NCBI RefSeq assembly: GCF_046105845.1
Contig: NZ_CP151004.1
DNA length: 64,000 nt
DNA from: Escherichia coli
GTDB lineage: Bacteria > Pseudomonadota > Gammaproteobacteria > Enterobacterales > Enterobacteriaceae
Strand: one strand, 5' to 3'
Shown here in pieces: positions 12,665 through 64,000 of the stretch. The first letter of the stretch is position 1. Every line of letters begins with the position of its first letter. The position numbers were made by a program, and so were the translations under genes. The notes beneath the pieces are model-generated. The model worked only from the letters and a program-made list of their open reading frames with translations. It did no database searches and was not told where the DNA came from.

Positions 12665-12692
12665 TGTTCAGTCCTCGTCACTGTACGAGGTA

Positions 12693-12719
12693 ATATCGGC
12701 AGAAGAACAAGGAACTTGA
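12693..12719 (-). promoter_or_regulatory. Putative sigma-28 (FliA) promoter for the FlxA-like gene
   Basis: Minus strand reads TCAAGTTC-N11-GCCGATAT versus consensus TAAAGTTT-N11-GCCGATAA, about 30 nt upstream of the start codon. Confidence 0.5.
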
Positions 12720-12751
12720 GAAGAAAAATCAATCTTACAAACCGCATATAG

Positions 12752-48384: not shown

Positions 48385-48388
48385 GTGG

Positions 48389-49003
48389 TTAGCCGATTTT
48401 GTTACGTTGTGCGAATGTGTAAAGATCCATCAGTGATTTACATTCTAATTTTTCCATCAGGCGACTTTTATAAGTGCTGACAGTTTTGTTGCTGATGAAC
48501 ATTTTTTCCGCAATATCATTATTATCCTTGCCATCAAGAATATATCGCATGACACTAATTTCTTGTTTCGATAAGGAGTCGAGTTTTTGCTGGTCGGACG
48601 TTAAACTTCCAACAAACCGGTTGAGAGAGAAGGGGAAATAGCAGTAGCCATTTTTTGCAGCTTCAATAGCCGCAATGATATTGTTCATGCCTTCTTTTTT
48701 ACTCACGAATCCATTAGCGCCAGCATCAGCACAATGTTTCCCGTAAAAATGGTCATTTTTAGCGGAGACGATAATAATAATTCCGCTATATTGGCGCTTC
48801 CTCAGCGTTTCTAACACCTGGATACCGTTAACTCCGGGGATATCGACATCAATGATGACGATATCAGGTTTAAGTGTTTCCACCCGCTGAACGGCACTTC
48901 CCCCTTCAGTCAACTCCGCTAAGATTTCAATATCGTTTTTGATCAATAAATTACGAATTGCTGCGATAGCAAGAGGATGGTCATCAATAATTATTGCGTT
49001 CAT
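48389..49003 (-). CDS. evgA: Response regulator EvgA (receiver + LuxR-type HTH)
   Basis: 204-aa ORF MNAIIIDDHPLAIAAIRNLL...; operon with evgS. Confidence 0.95.
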   Translation of the reverse strand: MNAIIIDDHPLAIAAIRNLLIKNDIEILAELTEGGSAVQRVETLKPDIVIIDVDIPGVNGIQVLETLRKRQYSGIIIIVSAKNDHFYGKHCADAGANGFVSKKEGMNNIIAAIEAAKNGYCYFPFSLNRFVGSLTSDQQKLDSLSKQEISVMRYILDGKDNNDIAEKMFISNKTVSTYKSRLMEKLECKSLMDLYTFAQRNKIG

Positions 49004-49227
49004 AGATTATTCCCTTTGCAATGAAGCATCTCCCTTCTCCCTGTAGTAATACAGACATAAGGCATCATCTCATTTTCTCAATAAAAATAAGAAAATTTGA
49101 GCTTCCTTTAAGATAATTCGACAAGTATACCATATAAATAGTCGGCATATATGAAATGTCAACAATAAAATCAGGGATTGTACCGATTATTTATAGTTTC
49201 ACATTAGTACTATAAGTCTTCTCACTA

Positions 49228-49245
49228 ATCCTACATGCGTAAGAA
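49228..49245. promoter_or_regulatory. EvgA box-like inverted repeat in the evgA-emrK divergent promoter region
   Basis: ATCCTACATGCGTAAGAA; half-sites match TTCPyTACA 7/9 each. Confidence 0.45.
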
Positions 49246-49418
49246 TTGTATTGCAAAAGCCACGGTTTAGTCCTCTGTTGTTTTTTTTGCACCTCATTTA
49301 AATTAGGCCTCCAACGTTCCTGGGATAATGTGCAACACATGCACTGTGTTTGATATGAAGAATGAATAATCATTTCATTCAATTCATAAATTTCATCTAT
49401 GCGAAATGAGAGATAATA

Positions 49419-50582
49419 GTGGAACAGATTAATTCAAATAAAAAACAATCTAACAGAAGAAAATACTTTTCTTTATTGGCGGTAGTTTTATTTATTGCGT
49501 TTTCAGGTGCCTATGCCTATTGGTCAATGGAATTAGAAGACATGATTAGTACAGATGACGCCTATGTCACGGGGAATGCAGATCCAATTTCTGCACAAGT
49601 CTCAGGTAGTGTCACTGTCGTTAATCATAAAGATACGAACTACGTTCGACAAGGTGACATTTTAGTCTCACTGGATAAGACTGATGCCACTATCGCACTC
49701 AATAAAGCTAAAAATAATCTGGCCAATATTGTTCGGCAAACGAATAAACTGTACTTACAGGATAAACAATACAGTGCCGAAGTCGCTTCAGCTCGTATTC
49801 AGTATCAACAATCTTTAGAAGATTATAACCGTCGTGTACCTTTAGCGAAGCAGGGGGTTATTTCAAAAGAAACGCTGGAGCATACCAAAGATACGTTAAT
49901 AAGTAGCAAAGCGGCATTGAATGCTGCTATTCAGGCTTATAAAGCGAATAAAGCTTTAGTAATGAACACACCATTAAACCGTCAGCCACAAGTCGTTGAA
50001 GCGGCGGATGCAACCAAAGAAGCCTGGTTAGCGCTTAAACGTACGGATATTAAGAGTCCGGTTACCGGCTATATTGCCCAGCGAAGTGTTCAGGTCGGCG
50101 AAACAGTGAGTCCCGGACAATCGTTAATGGCTGTCGTACCGGCACGTCAAATGTGGGTTAATGCCAACTTTAAAGAAACACAACTCACGGATGTACGGAT
50201 TGGTCAATCGGTCAATATTATCAGCGATCTTTATGGTGAAAATGTTGTGTTTCATGGTCGGGTGACAGGGATCAATATGGGAACCGGCAATGCGTTCTCC
50301 TTATTACCTGCACAAAATGCGACAGGGAACTGGATCAAAATCGTTCAGCGTGTACCGGTTGAAGTTTCTCTTGATCCAAAAGAACTCATGGAACATCCCT
50401 TACGTATTGGTTTATCGATGACAGCAACTATTGATACGAAGAACGAAGACATTGCCGAGATGCCTGAGCTGGCTTCAACCGTGACGTCCATGCCTGCTTA
50501 TACCAGTAAGGCTTTAGTTATCGATACCAGCCCGATAGAAAAAGAAATTAGCAACATTATTTCGCATAATGGACAACTTTAA
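49419..50582 (+). CDS. emrK: Multidrug efflux membrane fusion protein (EmrA paralog)
   Basis: 387-aa ORF with single N-terminal TM and HlyD-family periplasmic adaptor features. Confidence 0.9.
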   Translation: MEQINSNKKQSNRRKYFSLLAVVLFIAFSGAYAYWSMELEDMISTDDAYVTGNADPISAQVSGSVTVVNHKDTNYVRQGDILVSLDKTDATIALNKAKNNLANIVRQTNKLYLQDKQYSAEVASARIQYQQSLEDYNRRVPLAKQGVISKETLEHTKDTLISSKAALNAAIQAYKANKALVMNTPLNRQPQVVEAADATKEAWLALKRTDIKSPVTGYIAQRSVQVGETVSPGQSLMAVVPARQMWVNANFKETQLTDVRIGQSVNIISDLYGENVVFHGRVTGINMGTGNAFSLLPAQNATGNWIKIVQRVPVEVSLDPKELMEHPLRIGLSMTATIDTKNEDIAEMPELASTVTSMPAYTSKALVIDTSPIEKEISNIISHNGQL

Positions 50583-52120
50583 TGGCAATCACTAAATCAA
50601 CTCCGGCACCATTAACCGGTGGGACGTTATGGTGCGTCACTATTGCATTGTCATTAGCGACGTTTATGCAAATGTTGGATTCCACTATTTCTAACGTCGC
50701 AATACCGACAATATCTGGCTTTCTGGGAGCATCAACAGACGAAGGCACCTGGGTTATCACTTCGTTTGGCGTAGCAAATGCCATTGCGATCCCTGTTACC
50801 GGCAGGCTGGCACAAAGAATAGGCGAATTAAGATTATTTTTACTTTCAGTCACTTTTTTTTCGCTGTCTTCATTAATGTGTAGCCTATCGACCAATCTTG
50901 ATGTGCTGATATTTTTTAGAGTCGTTCAGGGGTTAATGGCGGGGCCGTTAATTCCACTGTCACAGAGTTTATTATTAAGGAATTATCCGCCAGAAAAAAG
51001 AACATTTGCTTTGGCATTATGGTCAATGACCGTAATTATCGCTCCGATATGTGGGCCGATATTGGGCGGCTATATTTGCGATAACTTTAGCTGGGGTTGG
51101 ATATTTTTAATCAATGTCCCTATGGGGATTATCGTTCTGACATTATGCTTAACCTTACTTAAAGGAAGAGAAACTGAGACTTCACCGGTCAAAATGAATC
51201 TACCAGGACTAACCCTGTTAGTGCTCGGTGTTGGTGGCTTGCAGATAATGCTTGATAAAGGGCGCGACCTGGATTGGTTCAACTCGAGTACAATAATAAT
51301 ACTAACAGTAGTGTCAGTTATTTCTCTGATTTCTTTAGTCATTTGGGAGTCGACCTCAGAGAACCCGATTCTTGATCTCAGTTTGTTTAAGTCCCGTAAT
51401 TTCACCATTGGTATTGTGAGTATCACATGCGCGTATTTATTTTACTCTGGAGCGATCGTCCTTATGCCGCAGTTACTCCAGGAAACTTTGGGGTATAATG
51501 CGATATGGGCCGGACTTGCTTATGCGCCCATCGGCATCATGCCACTATTAATTTCACCTTTGATAGGACGTTATGGCAACAAAATAGACATGCGGGTGTT
51601 AGTGACATTTAGTTTTTTGATGTATGCGGTTTGCTATTACTGGCGTTCTGTGACATTTATGCCAACGATTGATTTTACAGGCATTATTTTGCCACAGTTT
51701 TTCCAGGGATTCGCCGTTGCCTGTTTCTTTTTACCCTTAACAACGATTTCGTTTTCAGGGTTGCCAGATAATAAATTTGCCAATGCCTCGAGTATGAGTA
51801 ATTTTTTTCGTACCTTGTCAGGATCAGTTGGTACGTCGTTGACAATGACGCTGTGGGGACGACGCGAATCGTTACACCATAGTCAGTTGACAGCAACCAT
51901 CGATCAATTTAACCCCGTGTTTAATTCATCGTCACAAATTATGGATAAATACTATGGTTCGCTTTCAGGAGTTCTTAATGAGATTAATAATGAAATAACC
52001 CAGCAGTCACTTTCTATTTCTGCAAATGAGATTTTCCGTATGGCGGCTATTGCTTTTATCTTACTTACGGTTTTGGTTTGGTTTGCGAAACCGCCCTTTA
52101 CAGCGAAAGGCGTTGGGTGA
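50582..52120 (+). CDS. emrY: MFS multidrug efflux pump (EmrB paralog, 14-TM type)
   Basis: 512-aa polytopic ORF; start overlaps the emrK stop. Confidence 0.9.
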   Translation: MAITKSTPAPLTGGTLWCVTIALSLATFMQMLDSTISNVAIPTISGFLGASTDEGTWVITSFGVANAIAIPVTGRLAQRIGELRLFLLSVTFFSLSSLMCSLSTNLDVLIFFRVVQGLMAGPLIPLSQSLLLRNYPPEKRTFALALWSMTVIIAPICGPILGGYICDNFSWGWIFLINVPMGIIVLTLCLTLLKGRETETSPVKMNLPGLTLLVLGVGGLQIMLDKGRDLDWFNSSTIIILTVVSVISLISLVIWESTSENPILDLSLFKSRNFTIGIVSITCAYLFYSGAIVLMPQLLQETLGYNAIWAGLAYAPIGIMPLLISPLIGRYGNKIDMRVLVTFSFLMYAVCYYWRSVTFMPTIDFTGIILPQFFQGFAVACFFLPLTTISFSGLPDNKFANASSMSNFFRTLSGSVGTSLTMTLWGRRESLHHSQLTATIDQFNPVFNSSSQIMDKYYGSLSGVLNEINNEITQQSLSISANEIFRMAAIAFILLTVLVWFAKPPFTAKGVG

Positions 52121-52227
52121 TGGTAAAAGCAAGGGGTTATAGCGGGTAAGACCGGGGATCTTAAGTCTGCGCCATCGGCAGCATCGCTCACCCAGGGAAA
52201 GGATGGCGATGCTGCATTGAAAATTAA

Positions 52228-53556
52228 TTAGCGGCCTTTTGCCAGATATTGCTCCATCTCTTCTTCCGGCACCATTCCACCTCCCGTCGCCCACACCAGA
52301 TGAGTGGCATTACGCAGTTGTTCTGCGCTGAAACCGTGCATCTGTTGGTAACTTACTGATGCACACACGCGCTGAGGTCCGGCCATACCCGCCAGTGCCG
52401 AAGGTTCAAGACGAATACCTTCTTCCTGCGCCAGCCAGCCAAGCATGTCATACATGGATTGATCGCTAAGGGTATAGAAGCCATCCAGTAGACGCTCCAT
52501 TGCCCGCCCGACAAAGCCTGATGCGCGACCAACTGCAAGGCCATCCGCTGCGGTAAGGTTGTCGATACCAATATCCTGAACAGAAATCTGATCGTGTAAT
52601 CCTGTATGGACGCCTAACAGCATACAAGGGGAGTGCGTTGGTTCGGCAAAAAAGCAGTGAACATGATCGCCAAATGCCAGTTTAAGCCCGAATGCGACGC
52701 CACCAGGACCACCGCCAACACCACACGGCAGATAGACAAACAGAGGGTTATCAGCATCGACAATACGACCTTGCTCGGCAAATTGCGCTTTAAGACGCTG
52801 GCCTGCGACGGAATACCCAAGGAACAACGTGCGGGAATTTTCGTCATCAATAAAGAAACAGTTCGGGTCAGACTGCGCTGCTTTACGTCCTTCCTCGACG
52901 GCAACACCATAATCTTGCTCATATTCCACGACCGTAACGCCATGGCTGCGCAGTTTCGCTTTTTTCCATGCCCGGGCATCAGCAGACATATGCACTGTCA
53001 CCTTAAAGCCAATGCGGGCGCTCATTATGCCGATTGATAACCCCAGATTTCCGGTTGAGCCCACAGCAATGCTGTATTGACTAAAGAACTGTTTAAACTC
53101 CGGAGACAGTAGTTTGCTGTAGTCATCTTCAGGCGTCAGCAACCCCGCTTCCAGAGCCAGTTTTTCTGCGTGTGCCAGGACTTCATAAATCCCGCCGCGT
53201 GCTTTTATGGAGCCGGAAATGGGCAAATGGCTATCTTTTTTCAGTAACAGTTGTCCGCTGATCGGTTGTTGATATTCCTTTTCCAGCCGTTTTTGCATAG
53301 CCGGAATGGCAACCAGTTCTGATTCAATAATCCCCCCAGTGGCAGCAGTTTCAGGAAATGCTTTTGCCAGATAGGGTGCAAAACGAGATAAGCGCGCATG
53401 GGCGTCCTGAACATCCTGTTCGGTCAGGCCAACATAAGGTAAACCTTCAGCCAATGAGGTCGTGCCAGGATTAAACCAGGTGGTTTCTTTAAGAGCAACC
53501 AGATCCTTTACCAACGGATACTGGGCGATGAGCGAGTTCATTTTAGCGTTTTCCAT
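52228..53556 (-). CDS. dsdA: D-serine dehydratase (D-serine ammonia-lyase, PLP-dependent)
   Basis: 442-aa [34 protein letters not shown]... with PLP-lysine region (SGSIKARGG). Confidence 0.95.
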
Positions 53557-53573
53557 AGTACGTCTCTTTGCGC

Positions 53574-53792
53574 TTAGATGATAAATGACAGCAGGAATGT
53601 GCCCGCCAGAGCGACGACTGAAGCGATAAATGTCGCTGTCGTATAGTATTTAAATGTTTCATTGAGCGTAGCGCCGCAATATTGCTTCACCAGCCAGAAA
53701 AGCGAGTCTGTAACGATCGTGCAGCCAATCGCACCTGAACCGATAGCAATCGCAATAATTTCCGGGCTGATGTCGGGATACAGCGGCAGCAC
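53574..53792 (-). pseudogene. dsdX: 3'-terminal remnant of the D-serine permease gene dsdX (GntP family); 5' portion and dsdC replaced by the csc island
   Basis: 72-aa ORF of purely membrane-like sequence 18 bp upstream of dsdA, where intact dsdX sits in K-12; far too short for a GntP permease. Confidence 0.7.
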
Positions 53793-54034
53793 AATGATCC
53801 ATATTTATATTTTCTTCTCCAGGTTGGCGATGCCAGTTGGCATGTTTTACCTACTTGCCTATATGGTTACTCGTTGGCGAGAACAGAGGCGGAATTGGGC
53901 ACAATTGTCCGGGAATTATTGTTATTTTTTATTGTATTGCCGTGTCGGGTGATAGGGCGTTGAGAATATCGTTGGATCTCGCCAGTGACGTCTGTTTCTG
54001 CTACAGTGCCCGTTTTACGGCAAACGGCTTGGGT

Positions 54035-55030
54035 ATGGCTTCATTAAAGGATGTCGCACGCCTGGCGGGAGTGTCGATGATGACAGTCTCCCGGGTGATG
54101 CATAATGCAGAATCTGTGCGTCCTGCAACGCGTGACCGCGTATTGCAGGCAATCCAGACCCTGAATTATGTTCCTGATCTTTCCGCCCGTAAGATGCGCG
54201 CTCAAGGACGTAAGCCGTCGACTCTCGCCGTGCTGGCGCAGGACACTGCTACCACTCCTTTCTCTGTTGATATTCTGCTTGCCATTGAGCAAACCGCCAG
54301 CGAGTTCGGCTGGAATAGTTTTTTAATCAATATTTTTTCTGAAGATGACGCTGCCCGCGCGGCACGTCAGCTGCTTGCCCACCGTCCGGATGGCATTATC
54401 TATACTACAATGGGGCTGCGACATATCACGCTGCCTGAGTCTCTGTATGGTGAAAATATTGTATTGGCGAACTGTGTGGCGGATGACCCAGCGTTACCCA
54501 GTTATATCCCTGATGATTACACTGCACAATATGAATCAACACAGCATTTGCTCGCGGCGGGCTATCGTCAACCGTTATGCTTCTGGCTACCGGAAAGTGC
54601 GTTGGCAACAGGGTATCGTCGGCAGGGATTTGAGCAGGCCTGGCGTGATGCTGGACGAGATCTGGCTGAGGTGAAACAATTTCACATGGCAACAGGTGAT
54701 GATCACTACACCGATCTCGCAAGTTTACTCAATGACCACTTCAAATCTGGCAAACCAGATTTTGATGTTCTGATATGTGGTAACGATCGCGCAGCCTTTG
54801 TCGCTTATCAGGTTCTCCTGGCGAAGGGGGTACGTATCCCGCAGGATGTCGCCGTAATGGGCTTTGATAATCTGGTTGGCGTCGGGCATCTGTTTTTACC
54901 GCCGCTGACCACAATTCAGCTTCCACATGACATTATCGGGCGGGAAGCTGCATTGCATATTATTGAAGGTCGTGAAGGGGGAAGAGTGACGCGGATCCCT
55001 TGCCCGCTGTTGATCCGTTGTTCCACCTGA
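54035..55030 (+). CDS. cscR: LacI-family sucrose operon repressor (start taken at MASLKDVARLAGVS)
   Basis: N-terminal LacI-type HTH (LKDVARLAGVSMMTVSRVMHN) plus periplasmic-binding-like sugar domain; convergent with cscA. Confidence 0.85.
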   Translation: MASLKDVARLAGVSMMTVSRVMHNAESVRPATRDRVLQAIQTLNYVPDLSARKMRAQGRKPSTLAVLAQDTATTPFSVDILLAIEQTASEFGWNSFLINIFSEDDAARAARQLLAHRPDGIIYTTMGLRHITLPESLYGENIVLANCVADDPALPSYIPDDYTAQYESTQHLLAAGYRQPLCFWLPESALATGYRRQGFEQAWRDAGRDLAEVKQFHMATGDDHYTDLASLLNDHFKSGKPDFDVLICGNDRAAFVAYQVLLAKGVRIPQDVAVMGFDNLVGVGHLFLPPLTTIQLPHDIIGREAALHIIEGREGGRVTRIPCPLLIRCST

Positions 55031-55037
55031 TATTATG

Positions 55038-56471
55038 TTAACCCAGTTGCCAGAGTGCTCCATGTTGCAGCACAGCCACTCCGTGGGAGGCATAGAGCGA
55101 CAGTTCCCGTTCTTCTGGCTGCGGATAGATTCGGCTACTCATCACCGTTTCCCCGTCGTTAATAAATACTTCCACGGATGATGTATCGATAAATATCCTT
55201 AGGGCGAGCGTGTCACCCTGCGGGAGGGGAATACTACGGTAGCCGTCTAAATTCTCGTGTGGGTAATATCGCCACAAAACAAGTCGCTCAGATTGGTTAT
55301 CAATATACAGCCGCATTCCAGTGCCGAGCTGTAATCCGTAATGTTCGGCATCACTGTTCTTCAGCGCCCACTGCAACTGAATCTCAACTGCTTGCGCGTT
55401 TTCCTGCAAAACATATTTATTGCTGATTGTGCGGGGAGAGATAGATTGATGCTGCTGGCGTAACGACTCAGCTTCGTGTACCGGGCGTTGTAGGAGTTTG
55501 CCATTGCTCTCTGATAGCTCGCGCGCCAGCGTCATGCAGCCTGCCCAGCCTTCACGTTTTGAGGGCATTGGCGATTCCCACATATCCATCCAGCCGATAA
55601 CAATACGCCGACCATCCTTCGCTACAAAGCTTTGTGGTGCATAAAAGTCATGCCCGTTATCAAGTTCAGTAAAATGCCCGGATTGTGCAAAAAGTCGTCC
55701 AGGCGACCAAATTCCGGGTATTACGCCACTTTGAAAGCGATTTCGATAACTGTATCCCTCGGCATTCATTCCCTGCGGGGAAAACATCAGATAATGCTGA
55801 TCGCCAAGGCTGAAAAAGTCCGGACATTCCCACATATAGCTTTCACCCGCATCAGCGTGGGCCAGTACGCGATCGAAAGTCCATTCACGCAATGAACTGC
55901 CGCGATAAAGCAGGATCTGCCCCGTGTTGCCTGGGTCTTTCGCCCCGACTACCATCCACCATGTGTCGGCTTCACGCCACACTTTAGGATCGCGGAAGTG
56001 CATGATGCCTTCTGGTGGAGTGAGGATCACACCCTGTTTCTCGAAATGAATACCATCCCGACTGGTAGCCAGACATTGTACTTCGCGAATTGCATCGTCA
56101 TTACCTGCACCATCGAGCCAGACGTGTCCGGTGTAGATAAGTGAGAGGACACCATTGTCATCGACAGCACTACCTGAAAAACACCCGTCTTTGTCATTCT
56201 CGTCTCCTGGCGCTAGCGCAATAGGCTCATGCTGCCAGTGGATCATATCGTCGCTGGTGGCATGTCCCCAGTGCATTGGCCCCCAGTGTTCGCTCATCGG
56301 GTGATGTTGATAAAACGCGTGATAACGATCGTTAAACCAGATCAGGCCGTTTGGATCGTTCATCCACCCGGCAGGAGGCGCGAGGTGAAAATGGGGATAG
56401 AAAGTGTTACCTCGGCGCTCGTGAAGTTTTGCTAGTGCGTTTTGCGCCGCATGTAATCGAGATTGCGTCAT
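55038..56471 (-). CDS. cscA: Sucrose-6-phosphate hydrolase / invertase (glycoside hydrolase family 32)
   Basis: GH32 motifs WMNDPNGL, FRDP and WECPD in the translation. Confidence 0.9.
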   Translation of the reverse strand: MTQSRLHAAQNALAKLHERRGNTFYPHFHLAPPAGWMNDPNGLIWFNDRYHAFYQHHPMSEHWGPMHWGHATSDDMIHWQHEPIALAPGDENDKDGCFSGSAVDDNGVLSLIYTGHVWLDGAGNDDAIREVQCLATSRDGIHFEKQGVILTPPEGIMHFRDPKVWREADTWWMVVGAKDPGNTGQILLYRGSSLREWTFDRVLAHADAGESYMWECPDFFSLGDQHYLMFSPQGMNAEGYSYRNRFQSGVIPGIWSPGRLFAQSGHFTELDNGHDFYAPQSFVAKDGRRIVIGWMDMWESPMPSKREGWAGCMTLARELSESNGKLLQRPVHEAESLRQQHQSISPRTISNKYVLQENAQAVEIQLQWALKNSDAEHYGLQLGTGMRLYIDNQSERLVLWRYYPHENLDGYRSIPLPQGDTLALRIFIDTSSVEVFINDGETVMSSRIYPQPEERELSLYASHGVAVLQHGALWQLG

Positions 56472-56504
56472 TTTTATCATCCTGGTTAAGCAAACTTGGT
56501 GAAT

Positions 56505-56517
56505 TGTTAACGTTAAC
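56505..56517. promoter_or_regulatory. Candidate CscR operator O1 (palindrome TGTTAACGTTAAC) upstream of cscA
   Basis: Self-complementary GTTAACGTTAAC core with central CG, typical of LacI-family operators. Confidence 0.5.
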
Positions 56518-56568
56518 CTTTATAAAAATAAAGTCCCTTGCTTTCATAAATGCGATGAATATCACAAA

Positions 56569-56581
56569 TGTTAACGTTAAC
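56569..56581. promoter_or_regulatory. Candidate CscR operator O2 (second exact copy of TGTTAACGTTAAC) upstream of cscK
   Basis: Identical 13-mer 64 bp from O1 within the divergent cscA/cscK control region. Confidence 0.5.
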
Positions 56582-56686
56582 TATGACGTTTTGTGATCGA
56601 ATATGCATGTTTTAGTAAATCCATGACGATTTTGCGAAAAAGAGGTTTATCACTATGCGTAAGTCAGATGAATTTAAGGGAAAAAA

Positions 56687-57610
56687 ATGTCAGCCAAAGT
56701 ATGGGTTTTAGGGGATGCGGTCGTAGATCTCTTGCCAGAATCAGACGGGCGGCTACTGCCTTGTCCTGGCGGTGCGCCAGCTAACGTTGCGGTGGGAATC
56801 GCCAGATTAGGCGGAATAAGTGGGTTTATAGGTCGGGTGGGGGATGATCCTTTTGGTGCGTTAATGCAAAGAACGCTGCTAACTGAGGGTGTCGATATCA
56901 CGTATCTGAAGCAAGATGAATGGCACCGGACATCCACGGTGCTTGTCGATCTGAACGATCAAGGAGAACGTTCATTTACGTTTATGGTCCGCCCCAGTGC
57001 CGATCTTTTTTTAGAGACGACAGACTTGCCCTGCTGGCGACATGGCGAATGGTTACATCTCTGTTCAATTGCGTTGTCTGCCGAGCCTTCGCGTACCAGC
57101 GCATTTACAGCGATGACGGCGATCCGGCATGCCGGAGGTTTTGTCAGCTTCGATCCCAATATTCGTGAAGATCTATGGCAAGACGAGCATTTGCTCCGCT
57201 TGTGTTTGCGGCAGGCGCTACAACTGGCGGATGTCGTCAAGCTCTCGGAAGAAGAATGGCGACTTATCAGTGGAAAAACACAGAACGATCGGGATATATG
57301 CGCCCTGGCAAAAGAGTATGAGATCGCCATGCTGTTGGTGACTAAAGGTGCAGAAGGGGTGGTGGTCTGTTATCGAGGACAAGTTCACCATTTTGCTGGA
57401 ATGTCTGTGAATTGTGTCGATAGCACGGGGGCGGGAGATGCGTTCGTTGCCGGGTTACTCACAGGTCTGTCCTCTACGGGATTATCTACAGATGAAAGAG
57501 AAATGCGACAAATTATCGATCTCGCTCAACGTTGCGGAGCGCTTGCAGTAACAGCGAAAGGGGCAATGACAGCGCTGCCATGTCGACAAGAACTGGAAAG
57601 TGAGAAGTAA
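56687..57610 (+). CDS. cscK: Fructokinase (PfkB/ribokinase family)
   Basis: 307-aa ORF with PfkB signatures (GGAPANVAVGIARLGG and DSTGAGDAFVAGLL). Confidence 0.9.
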   Translation: MSAKVWVLGDAVVDLLPESDGRLLPCPGGAPANVAVGIARLGGISGFIGRVGDDPFGALMQRTLLTEGVDITYLKQDEWHRTSTVLVDLNDQGERSFTFMVRPSADLFLETTDLPCWRHGEWLHLCSIALSAEPSRTSAFTAMTAIRHAGGFVSFDPNIREDLWQDEHLLRLCLRQALQLADVVKLSEEEWRLISGKTQNDRDICALAKEYEIAMLLVTKGAEGVVVCYRGQVHHFAGMSVNCVDSTGAGDAFVAGLLTGLSSTGLSTDEREMRQIIDLAQRCGALAVTAKGAMTALPCRQELESEK

Positions 57611-57671
57611 ACGGCGAGGCCGCTCTTATCTCTAAATAGGACATGAATTTTTTAACGACAGGCAGGTAATT

Positions 57672-58919
57672 ATGGCACTGAATATTCCATTCAGAAATGC
57701 GTACTATCGTTTTGCATCCAGTTACTCATTTCTCTTTTTTATTTCCTGGTCGCTGTGGTGGTCGTTATACGCTATTTGGCTGAAAGGACATCTAGGATTA
57801 ACAGGGACTGAATTAGGTACACTTTATTCGGTCAACCAGTTTACCAGCATTCTATTTATGATGTTCTACGGCATCGTTCAGGATAAACTCGGTCTGAAGA
57901 AACCGCTCATCTGGTGTATGAGTTTCATTCTGGTCTTGACCGGACCGTTTATGATTTACGTTTATGAACCGTTACTGCAAAGCAATTTTTCTGTAGGTCT
58001 AATTCTGGGGGCGCTCTTTTTTGGCCTGGGGTATCTGGCGGGATGCGGTTTGCTTGACAGCTTCACTGAAAAAATGGCGCGAAATTTTCATTTCGAATAT
58101 GGAACAGCGCGCGCCTGGGGATCTTTTGGCTATGCTATTGGCGCGTTCTTTGCCGGTATATTTTTTAGTATCAGTCCCCATATCAACTTCTGGTTGGTCT
58201 CGCTATTTGGCGCTGTATTTATGATGATCAACATGCGTTTTAAAGATAAGGATCACCAGTGCATAGCGGCGGATGCGGGAGGGGTAAAAAAAGAGGATTT
58301 TATCGCAGTTTTCAAGGATCGAAACTTCTGGGTTTTTGTCATATTTATTGTGGGGACGTGGTCTTTCTATAACATTTTTGATCAACAACTCTTTCCTGTC
58401 TTTTATGCAGGTTTATTCGAATCACACGATGTAGGAACGCGCCTGTATGGTTATCTCAACTCATTCCAGGTGGTACTCGAAGCGCTGTGCATGGCGATTA
58501 TTCCTTTCTTTGTGAATCGGGTAGGGCCAAAAAATGCATTACTTATCGGTGTTGTGATTATGGCGTTGCGTATCCTTTCCTGCGCGCTGTTCGTTAACCC
58601 CTGGATTATTTCATTAGTGAAGCTGTTACATGCCATTGAGGTTCCACTTTGTGTCATATCCGTCTTCAAATACAGCGTGGCAAACTTTGATAAGCGCCTG
58701 TCGTCGACGATCTTTCTGATTGGTTTTCAAATTGCCAGTTCGCTTGGGATTGTGCTGCTTTCAACGCCGACTGGGATACTCTTTGACCACGCAGGCTACC
58801 AGACAGTTTTCTTCGCAATTTCGGGTATTGTCTGCCTGATGTTGCTATTTGGCATTTTCTTCTTGAGTAAAAAACGCGAGCAAATAGTTATGGAAACGCC
58901 TGTACCTTCAGCAATATAG
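57672..58919 (+). CDS. cscB: Sucrose:H+ symporter (LacY-like oligosaccharide:H+ symporter, MFS)
   Basis: 415-aa 12-TM MFS ORF downstream of cscK. Confidence 0.85.
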   Translation: MALNIPFRNAYYRFASSYSFLFFISWSLWWSLYAIWLKGHLGLTGTELGTLYSVNQFTSILFMMFYGIVQDKLGLKKPLIWCMSFILVLTGPFMIYVYEPLLQSNFSVGLILGALFFGLGYLAGCGLLDSFTEKMARNFHFEYGTARAWGSFGYAIGAFFAGIFFSISPHINFWLVSLFGAVFMMINMRFKDKDHQCIAADAGGVKKEDFIAVFKDRNFWVFVIFIVGTWSFYNIFDQQLFPVFYAGLFESHDVGTRLYGYLNSFQVVLEALCMAIIPFFVNRVGPKNALLIGVVIMALRILSCALFVNPWIISLVKLLHAIEVPLCVISVFKYSVANFDKRLSSTIFLIGFQIASSLGIVLLSTPTGILFDHAGYQTVFFAISGIVCLMLLFGIFFLSKKREQIVMETPVPSAI

Positions 58920-59360
58920 ACGTAAACTTTTTCCGGTTGTTGTCGATATCTCCATATCCCTCAACCGGAAAATAGTAATACAAAAATGCTTAGCCCAACT
59001 AATAATCACCTAATCCAAACGCCTCATTCATGTTCTGGTACAGTCGCTCAAATGTACTCCGGATACGCGGTTCGCTGATTTCCAGGACATTGTCGTCATT
59101 CAGCGACCTGTCCCGAGTATCACGGGCCTGCGAATTCATCAAGGAATGCATTGCAGAGTGAAGTATCGAGTCACGCCATATTTCGCTATCAGGATTCTGT
59201 ATGATGGTTACATCGCCCGGCCCAGGGCTGTTTAGTCATCAGCGCTTTCTGACAGTGCTGAGATTTCAACCTGTTGCAGTAAAAATGAGTAGATATAGGG
59301 CAAGTGTGCTGCCAAACCCATCTTTTACGGGGTGAAGGTAGATATTGTTAGAAGGGTATC

Positions 59361-59375
59361 TGGTGTCCCCTGCAG
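59361..59375 (-). other. Prophage attachment-site core (attR): 15-nt copy of the 3' end of tRNA-Arg argW
   Basis: Minus strand reads CTGCAGGGGACACCA, identical to the 3' terminus of argW as I recall it; directly flanks torI as at the K-12 KplE1 attR. Confidence 0.6.
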
Positions 59376-59448
59376 ACATCTACTTGACGCGGCAGGGGAT
59401 TGATTGGAATGGTGTTTTTTGGATGTGAGAAATATTTTACCCGCTATT

Positions 59449-59649
59449 TTACCCATTGGCGCGGCTTAAGAGCTTATTTTTGAATTCACAATGGTCACGA
59501 TATAACCATCTTGCTCGCCCGTGGATAACTTTAGCTTTTGGCAGGTCGCCGGACTTAATCCGGTCATAGATGAAGGTTTTACCGAAGCCAGTATCGGCCA
59601 TGATGAATTTCAAATCAACCAGTGAATCAGGTTGTAGTTCGTGTTGCAT
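59449..59649 (-). CDS. torI: Excisionase / recombination directionality factor TorI (start taken at MQHELQPDSL)
   Basis: 66-aa translation MQHELQPDSLVDLKFIMADTGFGKTFIYDRIKSGDLPKAKVIHGRARWLYRDHCEFKNKLLSRANG recognised as TorI; winged-helix Xis-like. Confidence 0.8.
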   Translation of the reverse strand: MQHELQPDSLVDLKFIMADTGFGKTFIYDRIKSGDLPKAKVIHGRARWLYRDHCEFKNKLLSRANG

Positions 59650-59668
59650 GAGTGCTATCTCCAAATAG

Positions 59669-59684
59669 GGAATCGAACCTGCAA
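59669..59684 (-). other. 16-nt sequence identical to the argW T-arm segment immediately preceding the att core, separated from the core by torI
   Basis: Minus strand TTGCAGGTTCGATTCC; with the 59361-59375 core it reconstitutes the last 30 nt of argW. Confidence 0.45.
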
Positions 59685-59706
59685 ATCAGGCAATAAAAAA
59701 CCGCCA

Positions 59707-59874
59707 TCAGGCGGCTTGATGTTCTTTCAGTTCTTCAATTCGAATATTGGTTACGTCTGCATGTGCTATCTGCGCCCATATCATCCAGTGGTCATAGCAG
59801 TCGTTGATGTTCTCTGCTTCGATAACTCTGTTGAATGGTTCTCCATTCCATTCACCTGTGACTCGGAAGTGCAT
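59707..59874 (-). CDS. Small prophage ORF (55 aa), hypothetical
   Basis: ATG-initiated ORF MHFRVTGEWNGEPFNRVIEAENINDCYDHWMIWAQIAHADVTNIRIEELKEHQAA followed on the minus strand by a GC hairpin and T-run. Confidence 0.35.
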   Translation of the reverse strand: MHFRVTGEWNGEPFNRVIEAENINDCYDHWMIWAQIAHADVTNIRIEELKEHQAA

Positions 59875-59962
59875 TTATCATCTCCATAAAACAAAACCCT
59901 CCGTAGCGAGTTCAGATAAAAGAAATCCCCGCGAATGCGAGGATTGTTATGTAATATTTGGT

Positions 59963-60244
59963 TTAATCATCTATATGTTTTGTACAGAGAGGGCAAGTAT
60001 CGTTTCCACCGTACTCGTGATAATAATTTTGCACGGTAGCAGTCATTTCTCGCACATTGCAGAATGGGGATTTGTCTTCATTAGACTTATAAACCTTCAT
60101 GGAATATTTGTATGCCGACTCTATATCTATACCTTCATCTACATAAACACCTTCGTGATGTCTGCATGGAGACAAGACACCGGATCTGCACAACATTGAT
60201 AACGCCCAATCTTTTTGCTCAGACTCTAACTCATTGATACTCAT
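59963..60244 (-). CDS. Cys/His-rich hypothetical prophage protein (93 aa)
   Basis: ORF containing CRSGVLSPCRHH and CPLCTKH motifs; ea-region position. Confidence 0.45.
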   Translation of the reverse strand: MSINELESEQKDWALSMLCRSGVLSPCRHHEGVYVDEGIDIESAYKYSMKVYKSNEDKSPFCNVREMTATVQNYYHEYGGNDTCPLCTKHIDD

Positions 60245-60446
60245 TTATAAACTCCTTGCAATGTATGTCGTTTCAGCTAAACGGTATCAGCAATGTTTAT
60301 GTAAAGAAACAGTAAGATAATACTCAACCCGATGTTTGAGTACGGTCATCATCTGACACTACAGACTCTGGCATCGCTGTGAAGACGACGCGAAATTCAG
60401 CATTTTCACAAGCGTTATTTTTTACAAACCCGTATTCCTGCTCATA

Positions 60447-61070
60447 TCACTCTCCTTTGATGCGAATACCAGCAGTGCGCTCGGCTTCACTTTGTTCCCA
60501 AAACCACTTGTGAAGCTCCATAAGCTTTTCGTCAATCGGTGCATATTTGCGATTAAAGTAGGCCTGAGCATCTTTCTCAGATTCGTCCGGCAATTCGCCT
60601 GGGCCAAACAGTGTGTTATAAATCCATGCCAGTCCGCTTTTAGCGTCGCCAGTTGCCTGCCATTCGATAATCGCAGCCTGCATGACCAGAATGTTTTTCC
60701 CGATTAACAGGTCCAGTTCTTTGAACCGGTTGCGGATGTATGCATTCTCGCTTTGTAATTTTGCGTTGCGCTTCTCTGCGGCTTCCAGCTCAACACGCAG
60801 TTTCCCTACCGCTAGCGCAATTTCCTCGTTCTCCTGGTCGCGGCGTTTGATGTATTGCTGGTTTCTTTCCCGTTCATCCAGTAGTGCCAGCACGGTTTCT
60901 GGTCCGGCCAGAAATTTGAAGGCGTTGAGCGCATCAATATCCACACCGTAATCTTTAAGTTCCTGTTCACTTAACAAATCATCATCAGCTGGCAACATTA
61001 ACAGGCGTTCCATTGCTGGAATTGCACGTTCCGCCACCTCACGCAGTGCCTGGTAATTAATTTCGCTCAC
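60447..61070 (-). CDS. Lambdoid prophage ea-region protein, possibly Ea22-like (coiled-coil)
   Basis: 207-aa [27 protein letters not shown]... with central heptad-rich segment; start overlaps the upstream ORF stop (ATGA). Confidence 0.5.
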   Translation of the reverse strand: MSEINYQALREVAERAIPAMERLLMLPADDDLLSEQELKDYGVDIDALNAFKFLAGPETVLALLDERERNQQYIKRRDQENEEIALAVGKLRVELEAAEKRNAKLQSENAYIRNRFKELDLLIGKNILVMQAAIIEWQATGDAKSGLAWIYNTLFGPGELPDESEKDAQAYFNRKYAPIDEKLMELHKWFWEQSEAERTAGIRIKGE

Positions 61071-61516
61071 TGGTTGCCTCCTTTGCGAAGCTGGGCAGCA
61101 AAGTCACGGATAGTGTCATCAAGGTCTGGGCACAACAGATGGTCAGCAAACATCTCTACCCCCTGCGCCCGTACTTCAGCCAGGAAAGCATCGGTGGTTG
61201 GGGTTTCAGTAACATCATCTTCCCATTCGCCAAACTCCTCACGACAAAAGTCATTAAATTCCTTCTCAGATTGCTTAAGCGAGGTATTTTCTGCAGCCAT
61301 CTTCGCGCATTTAGCCTCAAGGTTATCAATCGTGATTCCAGCAGAACGACACTCCCGCAACGCCGTTTCCAGTTTTGATTCAAGCTCACCGAACTTACGC
61401 ACCAGATATTCAGCGTTTGTTTCGTTAACCTTTAAATCTCGTGGAAAGCATTTACCTTTCAGAAAACCATCCATCTCAATTAGTGACATTAGTTTCATTT
61501 CTTCCCACTCCGCCAC
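61067..61516 (-). CDS. Lambdoid prophage ea-region protein (coiled-coil, acidic), hypothetical
   Basis: 149-aa ORF translationally coupled to the downstream 207-aa ORF. Confidence 0.45.
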
Positions 61517-61655
61517 ATAGCATTCAGATATTTGTTGTCATTAACAGAACCGAAACTATTTCTCTTAAGTAATTCCTCTCTCGATGGCATTGGCTTTACG
61601 CGTTGGCGAATAATCATTTCTGCCGGAAGAATGCCGGGATTGTATGCAAGTCCTC

Positions 61656-61946
61656 TCATGATTTACTCTCCACGAACTGGTCAACAGCCATGCTAAGTGA
61701 CACACCTAAAGTCTCGATATGTTGCTGAATATCCTGTAGCGTCTGCGCCTGAGATAACAGGATTTCACGGTTGCATAACTCTTTAGCCAGATGCTCAAAC
61801 TTGCTGTAATAACCGATACGACTTAGTGTTTCTTTGCCTGCATTCTCGCCTTCTTTGATAATTCCTCTTTCGCTAAGAATCAGATCGTGTTTGGTTCCGG
61901 TAATAACGTATTTTCCGAGGTCGATGTTTAGCTTCATTGTTTTCAT
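61656..61946 (-). CDS. Hypothetical prophage protein (96 aa; start moved to [13 protein letters not shown], which has a GAGGA RBS)
   Basis: The track ORF N-terminus overlaps the upstream gene and looks out-of-frame; internal ATG has a strong RBS. Confidence 0.4.
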
Positions 61947-61956
61947 TGTTAATTCC

Positions 61957-62253
61957 TCAGTCATTACTGATAGCGCCATAGCGTGAGCGGTAATTACGCA
62001 GGCGCGGGTCGATATATTCAGGGAAGTGGGTATATGTGGCTTTGCGGAATGGTCGGATTGATGTCTGGTAAATTCGCTCGCGTTCTTCTTTCTCTGCAAG
62101 CCATATACAATGGCGAAATTCCTTTTCCTCTTTCGTTTCCTGCGGTAGCGACATTATCCGGTCGTAGTTTTTCCTGAATTTATCCAGCACCTCCGATACG
62201 GAATTGCCGGAACAGCGGCGCGGGTCATCCGCACCATACAGAGGCGCTGGCAT
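61957..62253 (-). CDS. Hypothetical prophage protein (98 aa) just downstream of the Erf/SSB-like pair; Abc-like anti-RecBCD role is speculative
   Basis: Charged 98-aa ORF MPAPLYGADDPRRCSGNSVSEVLDKFRKNYDRIM...; occupies the position where P22-type operons carry abc genes. Confidence 0.35.
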   Translation of the reverse strand: MPAPLYGADDPRRCSGNSVSEVLDKFRKNYDRIMSLPQETKEEKEFRHCIWLAEKEERERIYQTSIRPFRKATYTHFPEYIDPRLRNYRSRYGAISND

Positions 62254-62276
62254 AATGGAATCCTTATGTTGCTAAT

Positions 62277-62660
62277 TTAGAAGGGAATTGAATCGTCGTA
62301 TTCAGGATGATTTTGATGATTGCTACTTTGTTGCTGTTGGCTGTTTCCTGAAGTTGCAAATCCAATCTTTGCATTCAGTAATTCAAGAGTGATTGATTGA
62401 CCATTTTGCCCCTGATAAACATCAACCCTGATGTTTTCTCCGGTAATTTCTACAATGCCACCTTCAACAAGAACACTACGGTAGTAATCCGCTTGCGCTC
62501 CCGGCTTGGCAAATACAACGGCGCTGTAGTTTGTCCATTCTTTCTTTTTTGTCTGGCGATCGTAATACTGAACGCCAGCACGGATGTTGAATCCGATATT
62601 TTCCCCGGCCTGAAACTCTCTTGCGGGCTTGTTTAGTCTTACAGTAATCGAATGTGCCAT
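62277..62660 (-). CDS. SSB-like single-strand DNA-binding protein with SSB-type acidic C-terminal tip (start taken at MAHSITVRLNK)
   Basis: 127-aa ORF ending ...QQQQSSNHQNHPEYDDSIPF (compare SSB C-terminus DDDIPF); ATG overlaps the erf stop (TAATG). Confidence 0.55.
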   Translation of the reverse strand: MAHSITVRLNKPAREFQAGENIGFNIRAGVQYYDRQTKKKEWTNYSAVVFAKPGAQADYYRSVLVEGGIVEITGENIRVDVYQGQNGQSITLELLNAKIGFATSGNSQQQQSSNHQNHPEYDDSIPF

Positions 62661-63265
62661 TAAGCAGCCGCTCCTTCTAATTCGTCTCGTCTGATGTTGT
62701 AAACGTCCTGCGCTTTGTGCTGCTCCGGTGTGCCTTCGAGCATCTTCCACGCTTTGGCGAACGCCTGTTTAAGCTCTTCTACGGTGTTTTTCTGCAATGC
62801 TGCGTCAGTGAATGCTTTTAGAACCTGTTCAGATGTAGGTGATGGTTTTGATTGCTTTGCTGCTGCGTTCTGCTGATGTTTATGCTCGTCGGTATCTGCA
62901 TCTTTCGCATCATCAATGCCGAACAAACCATTGAGGCAATACTTGCGTGCATAAGAGCTTGTAGCTCCAGTAACTTGTGCAGAATCCATTCCTTTCTTGC
63001 TTTCTTCCTCTCGTGCAAGGGCGGTTGCTGTATGACTGTTTTCGCCATCAGTAATAGTTGCTGTTGCTTTCACGTAATACCGATCACCAATCAACACAAC
63101 TTCATCGCTGATTGATAAAAACAGGCCATTCAGTAACGGCTTAACGCCTTCAAGAATGTCTTCGCAGCTTCTGTATTTATATTTACCGAATGAGTTGTAC
63201 TGATTCTTTGGCGCGTTCAGATTCTCCTGAATGGCTGCCAGTCTTGCGTAAAATTCTTTGCTCAT
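62660..63265 (-). CDS. erf: Erf-family single-strand annealing recombinase (start taken at MSKEFYARLAAIQ)
   Basis: Translation MSKEFYARLAAIQENLNAPKNQYNSFGKYKYRSCEDILEGVKPLL... recognised as phage P22 Erf-like. Confidence 0.8.
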   Translation of the reverse strand: MSKEFYARLAAIQENLNAPKNQYNSFGKYKYRSCEDILEGVKPLLNGLFLSISDEVVLIGDRYYVKATATITDGENSHTATALAREEESKKGMDSAQVTGATSSYARKYCLNGLFGIDDAKDADTDEHKHQQNAAAKQSKPSPTSEQVLKAFTDAALQKNTVEELKQAFAKAWKMLEGTPEQHKAQDVYNIRRDELEGAAA

Positions 63266-63275
63266 ATGTTTGTTC

Positions 63276-63446
63276 TCAGAATGGACACGGCCCAAGGAAA
63301 TAACGCTGATTTAATACTTCGACTCGGGACAAATTAAGGCATACCCGCATTCCTTCGCGGTCACCATTATGGCGATACCAGAGAGCTTTCTGCGTGTACA
63401 TGCGTCTCTGTAACTTGCTCTCCTTCACTGTGGTTGCAAGTGACAT
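63276..63446 (-). CDS. Small prophage ORF (56 aa) immediately upstream of erf (Arf-position), hypothetical
   Basis: ATG with AGGAG RBS 6 nt upstream; MSLATTVKESKLQRRMYTQKALWYRHNGDREGMRVCLNLSRVEVLNQRYFLGPCPF; stop 10 nt before the erf start. Confidence 0.4.
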   Translation of the reverse strand: MSLATTVKESKLQRRMYTQKALWYRHNGDREGMRVCLNLSRVEVLNQRYFLGPCPF

Positions 63447-63525
63447 GAATATCTCCTTCGTTACCGATTAAATCTTTCATCTGACGAATGAATTCTTCGT
63501 CTGACCAGTTATCTGTAAAACTCAT
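63367..63525 (-). CDS. Small prophage ORF (52 aa, acidic; kil-position), overlaps the 56-aa ORF in another frame
   Basis: MSFTDNWSDEEFIRQMKDLIGNEGDIHVTCNHSEGEQVTETHVHAESSLVSP; weak RBS spacing; at most one of the two overlapping frames is likely expressed. Confidence 0.25.
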   Translation of the reverse strand: MSFTDNWSDEEFIRQMKDLIGNEGDIHVTCNHSEGEQVTETHVHAESSLVSP

Positions 63526-63658
63526 TTCCTGCGATACCACGGAAGGTTGATAGCTGATTTCATCGCTTTATTTGCTTCAAGCCACATTTTGGAATCACCA
63601 ATAAATCTGGCTATTACTGCTTTGTTTTGTGCCGCACGAAGCATCTGGTGATTAATGG

Positions 63659-63793
63659 CTATTTCATTTCGCATAACGCCTCCAGTTGTTTCTTTGCTGC
63701 TCTGATTAATTGTTTAACTCGGCGTGATAATTCAGATTCGTGCGGGTAGAAAGCGGACATGACGCCGCTACCCGCGAGCTGAAAGTGCATCAT
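63659..63793 (-). CDS. Small cIII-like protein (43 aa; candidate FtsH-inhibitor type)
   Basis: ATG ATG with AAGGAG RBS; MMHFQLAGSGVMSAFYPHESELSRRVKQLIRAAKKQLEALCEMK, with an amphipathic helix resembling the lambda CIII core. Confidence 0.4.
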   Translation of the reverse strand: MMHFQLAGSGVMSAFYPHESELSRRVKQLIRAAKKQLEALCEMK

Positions 63794-63857
63794 GGGTAAC
63801 TCCTTATATTTGATTGCATAACGAAAACGCCTCAAGTGAAGCGTTATTGGTATGCAT

Positions 63858-63883
63858 ATAAAAAAGCCCTCACACTGGAGGGC
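63858..63883 (-). terminator. Rho-independent terminator in the prophage leftward operon (tL1-like position upstream of the cIII-like gene)
   Basis: Hairpin gccctc-acactg-gagggc followed on the minus strand by a T-run. Confidence 0.5.
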
Positions 63884-64000
63884 AAAGAAGATTTCCAATA
63901 ATCAGAACAAGTCGTCTCCTGTTTAGTTACGAGCGACATTGCTCCGTGTATTCACTCGTTGTAATGAATACACAGTGCAGTGTTTATTCTGTTGTTTATG

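Follow-up and report, generated by a model that had tools for sequence, protein, structure and literature searches.

Among described systems, the one closest to the locus analysed here is the csc regulon of Escherichia coli EC3132, W and O157:H7 EDL933, which occupies the argW-dsdA hot spot. Several studies have described the arrangement (Jahreis 2002; Moritz and Welch 2006; Connolly 2015; O'Boyle 2020), and O157:H7 (EDL933) is the prototype described for the csc/dsdCX substitution (PMC4366372, PMC7486766); further csc literature supporting the identification of the regulon is found in PMC3032704. Its counterpart is the dsdCXA D-serine tolerance locus of K-12 and CFT073, and csc versus dsdCX constitutes a textbook metabolic trade-off allele in E. 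coli, with sucrose use set against D-serine tolerance. According to PMC4366372, carriage of the LEE type III secretion island is strongly anti-correlated with carriage of dsdCXA, a link to niche and pathotype. Two further systems are comparable. The Cf_csc locus of Citrobacter freundii shares homologous proteins and conserved operator repeats with E. coli csc, but there cscA is inverted, as is cscR, and the sequence is too divergent for blastn with an E. coli query (PMC11251922). The PTS-type scr regulon, which has the same physiological purpose as csc, relies on a PTS transporter, a porin and a sucrose-6-phosphate hydrolase, and all three are absent here.

In the window, by which we mean the whole 64-kb stretch of DNA that was analysed, the gene order after emrKY is dsdA, a dsdX remnant, cscR, cscA, cscK and cscB. 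The gene set, order, orientations, junctions and both 12-bp operators are those of the EC3132/W/EDL933 regulon, and we put at about 95% the probability that this interval represents the chromosomal csc regulon of E. coli at its customary site, with argW on one side and dsdA on the other. Two features set it apart from those strains, namely three additional residues in CscK and a lambdoid prophage between the block and argW. The first-pass annotation had recognised a csc block in place of dsdC and most of dsdX beside an intact dsdA, with both junctions inside the window. That observation is real and its interpretation right; the arrangement is already known, and the locus raises no new biological question. 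All six genes that it named are in the ORF list, at the coordinates stated.

The whole-locus alignment with K-12 dsdCXA that it had proposed maps the breakpoints to the base. On the left the break is at 53791|53792, at dsdX codon 374; on the right it is at 59360|59361, exactly at the terminal CCA (3' end) of an argW copy, so that a block of 5569 bp (53792-59360) stands where K-12 has 2368 bp (window positions 53791 and 59361 are equivalent to positions 14968 and 12599 of the K-12 locus). Missing relative to K-12 and CFT073 are dsdC, the dsdC-dsdX intergenic control region and dsdX codons 1-373, whereas dsdA, the emrY-side neighbours, the last 72 dsdX codons and the dsdX-dsdA spacer are shared. 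In their place are cscR, cscA, a divergent promoter/operator region, cscK, cscB and a relic of a DUF4942 gene. The segment from the left junction to cscR (53792..54034) was delimited by alignment with K-12 and AST215. The interval originally proposed, 53574-58919, was thus correct in gene content and too short on the right, where the block continues for another 441 bp to 59360. A second alignment, of the csc locus against O157:H7, is colinear over window positions 48001-59375 with 98.3% identity and 2 gap openings; CscR, CscA, CscK and CscB differ from those of O157:H7 strain 380-94 at 1, 4, 4 and 2 residues, respectively. The base-exact junction coordinates are usable as a typing marker.

Given that a lambdoid prophage has inserted at argW, the argW gene itself lies outside the window, and only a 16-nt copy of its 3' end (TCTGCAGGGGACACCA; 59361..59376, minus strand) is present, as the prophage attR. 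Homology to K-12 (torI to pawZ) stops exactly at the CCA. The first gene of the prophage is a torI-like excisionase (59449..59649, minus strand), which aligns with K-12 torI and matches the excisionase family phrog_66. The prophage runs off the window, its downstream ORFs match phage families including the abc2 anti-RecBCD family, and it is separate from the csc block. Strain SW4848 lacks the prophage, and there this csc-side sequence directly adjoins an intact tRNA-Arg gene (argW). The boundary of the block thus lies exactly at a tRNA 3' end, as in tRNA-targeting islands. We considered an intact integrative element bounded by direct repeats and rejected it, because the att core (searched with up to 3 mismatches) has a single occurrence in the window.

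Between cscB and the right junction, 58999..59235 (minus strand) is a decayed internal fragment of a z3622-like gene, matching Pfam DUF4942 over positions 5-62 of 190 (E = 1.5e-9), with no match in PHROGs or NCBIfam. Full-length DUF4942 genes of 846 nt occur elsewhere in E. coli, and the fragment is approximately 73-75% identical to them at the nucleotide level over some 200 nt, corresponding to about nt 243-445. In the one full-length locus inspected, an antirestriction-yeeS-yeeT-cbeA-cbtA island ends with this gene, which adjoins a tRNA gene. The position of the relic beside the exact tRNA boundary suggests that the csc block may have arrived on or beside a CP4-type integrative island, the far end of which disappeared along with dsdC and the 5' portion of dsdX. 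The relic was also tried as the standard terminal gene of such an island and rejected in that role: the inspected full-length example reads toward its neighbouring tRNA gene, whereas the relic reads away from argW and is an internal fragment only. For these two reasons the island origin stays a suggestion.

The tRNA hot spot, the adjoining prophage attR and the remains of a gene characteristic of integrative islands could also be taken as marks of a recent horizontal gain by this strain, for example together with the argW prophage. We regard a recent gain as very improbable. Relative to attR, the block is on the side of the chromosome and not of the prophage, and in prophage-free genomes the same two junctions occur with the block abutting argW. 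Moreover, 53792-59360 contains no integrase and no ORFs besides the four csc genes and the relic of the DUF4942 gene, and the window holds no second att copy.

All four csc genes are complete. The cscR gene (54035..55030, plus strand, with its real start at 54035) encodes a 331-aa repressor with full-length LacI-family matches. It is identical in DNA to the AST215 gene, its exact protein occurs on at least 1000 contigs, and a single residue separates it from the O157:H7 protein named 'sucrose operon repressor CscR' in RefSeq; in the NCBIfam search no equivalog cut-off was reached, since no CscR model matched. The cscA gene (55038..56471, minus strand) encodes a GH32 sucrose hydrolase (invertase) of 477 aa, which scores 478 bits against scrB_fam (cut-off 356), carries NDPNG at residue 38, RDP at 160 and EC at 215, and is identical to the commonest E. 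coli variant at 474 of 477 residues (99%), the three substitutions being I254, T421 and T442. The product of cscK (56687..57610, plus strand) is a PfkB-family fructokinase of 307 aa (NF006957, 506 bits, cut-off 450) with GGAPANV at residue 28 and GAGDAF at 248. It equals the commonest 304-aa variant (304/304 identical) plus a C-terminal Ser-Glu-Lys, which arose because one base of the stop codon was lost: the gene ends GAA AGT GAG AAG TAA here and GAA TAG in O157:H7, one T of the stop codon missing. We judge the extension to be harmless, although it and the three CscA substitutions count as reservations to a functional reading. Finally, cscB (57672..58919, plus strand) encodes a 415-aa sucrose:H+ symporter of the LacY (oligosaccharide:H+ symporter) family (TIGR00882, 595 bits, cut-off 220), identical to the sequence carrying the UniRef name 'Sucrose permease ... 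RepID=CSCB_ECOLX'. Its residues Q353, L51, C327 and L363 are all wild type, so the up-mutations listed in PMC3938415 are absent. The motif positions and profile matches agree with the earlier description of cscA, cscK and cscB as GH32, PfkB and LacY-like. That description had been made conditional on the absence of inactivating mutations, and neither the ORFs nor the alignments of the four genes revealed a frameshift, premature stop or insertion.

A palindrome search identified two candidate CscR operators in the divergent promoter region, both with the 12-bp sequence GTTAACGTTAAC, one on the cscA side (56506..56517) and the other on the cscK side (56570..56581). These are the only two copies in 64 kb, against a chance expectation of 0.12, and in 100 shuffles no sequence contained two or more. 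PMC11251922, crediting Jahreis 2002, describes, in the cscA-cscK interval, 'two copies of a 12 bp inverted repeat'. At 56592, beyond the second candidate operator, stands a CRP-like half-site, TGTGA; judging from this motif and from the two cAMP-CRP sites that PMC3938415 places in the bidirectional csc promoter, it may be a CRP site. The consensus scan of 53400-59500 returned no promoter-like sigma-70 site, whereas shuffled sequences averaged 9.1, and it gave 16 terminator-like matches, mostly within genes. As the scan yielded no usable sites, we base the assignment of promoters, operators and CRP sites on the palindromes and on the literature.

By family assignment and by the work on EC3132, W and EDL933, CscB would import sucrose with a proton, CscA would hydrolyse it to glucose and fructose, and CscK would phosphorylate the fructose. 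Acting at the two GTTAACGTTAAC operators, CscR would repress cscA and the divergently transcribed cscKB unit, and transcription would additionally need cAMP-CRP. With no departure from wild type in CscR, either operator or CscB Q353, the strain is predicted to show the published 'slow' phenotype, in which growth on sucrose occurs only above approximately 1%.

Carriage of csc does not guarantee a Suc+ phenotype, however. In PMC11251922, five isolates that carry csc are reported not to grow on sucrose, and in four of these no obvious lesion was seen. The csc genes could likewise be present but silent here, leaving a cryptic locus in a strain that is Suc-negative in practice; the lack of a consensus promoter in the 53400-59500 scan would fit such silence, as would the repression below approximately 1% sucrose predicted by the wild-type CscR, operators and CscB Q353 (PMC3938415). 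We consider a silent locus unlikely, if not negligibly so. The four ORFs are full length and identical or nearly identical to variants on hundreds to thousands of contigs, their catalytic motifs are intact, and dN/dS for cscA, cscB and cscR is 0.05-0.28. A functional but slow csc regulon remains our preferred reading.

On the D-serine side, dsdA (52228..53556, minus strand) is intact and encodes a D-serine ammonia-lyase of 442 aa, which scores 809.5 bits against TIGR02035 (cut-off 368). The exact protein is present in public E. coli assemblies, and it differs from O157:H7 DsdA at 2 residues. Upstream of it lies the 3' remnant of dsdX (53574..53791, minus strand), comprising K-12 codons 374-445 and the stop codon, as placed both by the DsdX model (positions 374-445 of 445) and by tblastn with K-12 DsdX. 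The 72-aa ORF runs from 53574 to 53792, so the first base of its GTG 'start' (53792) is csc-side DNA. The RefSeq annotations of AST215 and O157:H7 list this piece as a partial pseudogene. A complete dsdX or dsdC nearby was the finding that the first-pass annotation had named as contradicting it; tblastn with K-12 DsdC and DsdX detected no dsdC and no further dsdX in the 64-kb window, the only DsdC match being the 28%-identical LysR paralogue yfeR at 11412-11918. Judged as a functional dsdCXA locus, the region has an intact dsdA, only a partial dsdX and no dsdC.

Because the replacement removed DsdC (the activator), the promoter of dsdX and the transporter, the intact dsdA would be expected to be poorly expressed and, given this, the strain to be D-serine sensitive and without D-serine catabolism, unless another dsdCXA copy lies outside the window. 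The value of the locus for annotation is that the strain is predicted to be a slow sucrose user and D-serine sensitive. On the other hand, the 235 bp of native DNA kept upstream of dsdA, namely the remnant and the 17-bp dsdX-dsdA spacer, include the internal promoter element that O'Boyle 2020 placed at -115 of dsdA, and deletions that re-activate dsdA were selected in that study. Across the three csc-carrying genomes compared, dN/dS of dsdA is 0.04-0.15. Because this indicates strong purifying selection and the retained DNA includes the promoter element, it is conceivable that the replacement is not a simple loss of D-serine catabolism and that dsdA is maintained by selection for a DsdC-independent role, which could be low-level detoxification or that of a re-activatable reserve. 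We offer this idea tentatively and do not favour it.

The distribution of the arrangement was examined in 5426 complete E. coli genomes with a 200-nt probe centred on the left breakpoint (coverage of at least 80%). The same left junction was present in 2662 of them, about half, O157:H7 included. The earlier attribution to some pathogenic and sucrose-positive E. coli was therefore sound as to the arrangement and understated its frequency. The partial matches among those listed end at the breakpoint, probe position 100. A csc-side probe was likewise covered in 2662 genomes, and since the two counts are equal, there is no sign in the collection of a variant left junction with csc beside an intact dsdC. 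The right junction was found in 2502 genomes and the whole 7.4-kb arrangement (query window 52100-59500) in 2646. The best complete-genome match over this query is 99.1%, hence the allele is not exactly represented in that collection.

The alternative segment, dsdC-dsdX 5', was found in 2698 genomes, which together with the 2662 carrying csc amounts to 5360 of 5426 and is compatible with little or no overlap. The two alleles had been called mutually exclusive; this holds as a strong tendency and not as a strict rule, as PMC11251922 reports a few strains with both loci entire. Such strains also bear on whether a second, complete dsdCXA elsewhere in the genome keeps D-serine catabolism, as in K1 strains. 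Two copies are common in K1 strains, as the 2006 paper of Moritz and Welch, referenced in PMC7486766 and PMC4366372, states in its title, and the dsdC-dsdX probe matched up to two places per genome (2972 places in 2772 records). Nevertheless, we think a second copy improbable in this strain, given that tblastn revealed none in the 64-kb window and that the two genome counts sum to less than 5426, so that co-occurrence is at most uncommon.

With the csc allele alone as the preferred reading, its age can be approached through synonymous divergence. Against O157:H7, dS is 0.043 for cscA, 0.040 for cscB and 0.017 for cscR, compared with 0.049 for dsdA and 0.088 for emrY. The csc values are on the order of those of the flanking core genes, which again argues against a recent gain. 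As the junctions are identical in about 2660 genomes as well, we infer from the genome counts and listed example rows, rather than from a per-genome phylogeny, a single old replacement event that now segregates as an allele of the locus and is not recent in this strain.

In this window the cscRAKB sucrose genes stand in place of dsdC and most of dsdX. The replacement is real, the first-pass annotation interpreted it rightly, and it is already known: PMC4366372, PMC7486766, PMC3032704 and PMC11251922 all describe this arrangement at the argW hot spot, with citations to Jahreis et al. 2002, Moritz and Welch 2006, or Alaeddinoglu and Charles 1979. Added here are base-exact coordinates, a 441-bp extension with a DUF4942 relic, and an apparently benign CscK stop-codon variant. 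We fetched K-12 MG1655 2464000-2486000, aligned both block ends, and compared window 48001-64000 with K-12 by blastn. Two colinear blocks were recovered, namely window 48001-53791 with positions 20758-14968 of the fetched K-12 locus (98.0% identity) and window 59361-59699 with positions 12599-12261 (97.1% identity), and the left breakpoint was therefore placed between 53791 and 53792. At this point K-12 reads ...CACCCA followed by TGCTGCCGCTG, and the window ...ATCATTG followed by TGCTGCCGCTG. The window and K-12 share sequence from the second base of DsdX codon 374 onward; the G of the apparent GTG start of the dsdX remnant is supplied by the csc side. At the right breakpoint, between 59360 and 59361, K-12 homology stops exactly after ...TCTGCAGGGGACACCA. 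That sequence is the tRNA-Arg (argW) 3' end, of which K-12 has a duplicate at the right-hand boundary of its CPS-53 prophage; part of this duplicate is annotated as pawZ. The csc block measures 5569 bp (53792-59360) versus 2368 bp in K-12 (NC_000913.3 2476599-2478966), and in the lost K-12 segment lie the entire dsdC gene, the control region between dsdC and dsdX, and codons 1-373 of dsdX. The breakpoints thus bear out the proposed replacement; the interval first assigned to it, 53574-58919, covered the csc genes but ended at the cscB stop and so left out 441 bp at the right-hand end of the block.

ORFs were listed over window 50000-62000 and their proteins scored against NCBIfam models. The genes emrK (49419-50582, + strand) and emrY (50582-52120, +) are followed by dsdA (52228-53556, -), whose 442-aa product scored 809 bits with the D-serine ammonia-lyase model (cut-off 368), and by the dsdX 3' remnant (53574-53792 as an ORF, -), whose 72 aa cover positions 374-445 of 445 in the DsdX model. 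Next come cscR (54035-55030, +; 331 aa, true start the ATG at 54035), a LacI-type gene whose product had only full-length LacI-family matches in NCBIfam, and cscA (55038-56471, -; 477 aa from the MTQSRLH start; scrB_fam 478 bits, cut-off 356). They are followed by cscK (56687-57610, +; 307 aa; fructokinase model 506 bits, cut-off 450) and cscB (57672-58919, +; 415 aa; oligosaccharide MFS model 595 bits, cut-off 220). The GH32 and PfkB motifs read by eye are present, with NDPNG at residue 38, RDP at 160 and EC at 215 of CscA, and GGAPANV at residue 28 and GAGDAF at 248 of CscK. Given this gene list, these scores and these motifs, the gene content first described is correct as written. All testable defining features of the csc regulon were found in the window, and the definition of a dsdCXA locus failed on dsdC and dsdX.

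Inactivating mutations in the csc genes, which would have counted against the initial reading, were not found: the proteins are identical or close to common variants, with three additional residues in CscK. CscB is the exact sequence named CSCB_ECOLX in UniRef and, like the exact CscR protein, occurs on at least 1000 contigs; the cscR DNA is 100% the same as the gene of AST215, another csc-carrying E. coli. CscA has 3 of 477 residues unlike the commonest variant, and its exact form occurs on 11 contigs. Compared with O157:H7 strain 380-94, CscR differs at 1 residue, CscA at 4, CscK at 4 and CscB at 2. CscK equals its commonest variant at 304/304 residues and then adds SEK; codon comparison with O157:H7 (GAA TAG TGA there, GAA AGT GAG AAG TAA here) indicates that one stop-codon T is missing in the window. 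Since the fructokinase model aligned through its final position, we infer that the 3-residue extension is harmless. The stop codon (window 57599) is polymorphic: CscK has 304 aa in O157:H7 and in the csc-carrying SW4848, and the 307-aa form ends SEK in the window and GEK in AST215. The CscB up-mutations catalogued in PMC3938415 (Q353H, L51F, C327G, L363F) are all absent here.

The palindrome GTTAACGTTAAC occurs twice in the cscA-cscK intergenic region, at 56506 and 56570; the 64 kb hold no other copy, and 0/100 shuffles gave two. Two 12-bp inverted repeats were proposed as CscR operators by Jahreis et al. 2002, as relayed by PMC11251922, and the two copies correspond to them. The mechanism described next was published for this locus in other strains and is transferred here by sequence identity. 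CscB would take up sucrose with a proton, CscA would split it into glucose and fructose, and CscK would phosphorylate the fructose; the divergent cscA and cscKB units would be repressed by CscR via the intergenic operators, and expression would need cAMP-CRP. Wild-type csc loci require cAMP-CRP and are induced only at > ~1% sucrose (PMC3938415). Upstream of cscR (window 53792-54400), some csc genomes, W2-5 and EC31 among them, match 597 nt, not 609, at 97.2% identity, suggesting a polymorphic 12-bp indel at or close to the promoter or 5' region of cscR.

Without DsdC the dsd system does not work and cells are sensitive to D-serine (PMC7486766; PMC3032704), and dsdA would stay a 'silent' gene here. 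In EHEC, dsdA can be switched on again by deletions placing cscAp or the z3622 promoter upstream (PMC7486766). Upstream of dsdA, 235 bp of the original sequence survive in the window, spanning the -115 position at which a dsdA promoter element was placed (PMC7486766). The dN/dS of dsdA, 0.04-0.15 among three csc-carrying genomes between which recombination is possible, may be compatible with continued selection.

Probes were counted across 5426 complete E. coli genomes when covered over at least 80%. The 7.4-kb arrangement (window 52100-59500) was found in 2646 of them, a 200-nt probe with the left junction at its midpoint in 2662, a csc-side-only probe likewise in 2662, the right junction in 2502, and the alternative K-12 segment, dsdC to the dsdX 5' part, in 2698. 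Because the csc-side and left-junction counts are equal, there is no sign in the 5426 genomes of csc with another dsdX-side junction; among the matches listed for the left-junction probe, partial ones end at the breakpoint base. The sum of 2662 and 2698, 5360, is below 5426, which fits near-exclusivity of csc and dsdC-dsdX, short of proof, and rare strains carry both loci (PMC11251922). Against O157:H7, dS is 0.04 for cscA, 0.04 for cscB and 0.017 for cscR, next to 0.049 for dsdA and 0.088 for emrY in the flanks. On this comparison of divergence, recent import was rejected, and the values indicate that the block is an old allele of the locus. The closest complete genome matches the window's arrangement at 99.1%, and differences from the closest genomes are also scattered across core genes; the figure reflects an under-sampled lineage and nothing csc-specific.

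A short ORF reading away from argW, which RefSeq labels 'DUF4942 domain-containing protein', lies in the 441-bp stretch that separates cscB from the argW 3' end. It aligns to positions 5-62 of 190 in the Pfam DUF4942 model, and over ~200 nt it shares ~73-75% DNA identity with complete DUF4942 genes (846 nt) at other E. coli loci. One full-length example inspected ends an antirestriction-yeeS-yeeT-cbeA-cbtA island and adjoins a tRNA gene. The piece is an internal fragment with stop codons on both flanks in all frames, evidently a decayed relic. The tRNA-exact boundary of the block is suggestive of an integrative island. As a candidate of that kind the block failed two of three defining tests, with no integrase among its ORFs and no second argW att copy in the 64-kb window.

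ARAGORN found no tRNA-Arg in the window. The prophage attR (59361-59376) is the 16-nt argW end, a torI-like excisionase gene lies at 59449-59649, and the rest of the window consists of prophage early genes, including abc2 anti-RecBCD. SW4848, which is without the prophage, has the order cscA-cscK-cscB-DUF4942 relic-argW-yfdC-mlaA. The prophage at argW is lambdoid/P22-like, occupies window 59361-64000 and continues past the window end; its early genes match phrog_676, phrog_6325, phrog_250, phrog_614, a replication-initiation family and abc2 anti-RecBCD, and past 59704 it resembles the AST215 same-site prophage in patches only.

Elsewhere, in the yfeD-gltX gap (~14909-14911), the window is without the 1.75-kb IS200/IS605 tnpA/tnpB pseudogene pair of AST215. 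Between yfeR and the tRNA-Lys/Val cluster (window 12333-12742) it has a 113-aa FlxA-like ORF (12323-12664, -), where AST215 and K-12-type genomes have ~4.6 kb with yfeN-xapA-xapB-xapR instead; the window's arrangement at this site is covered in 1306/5426 complete genomes.
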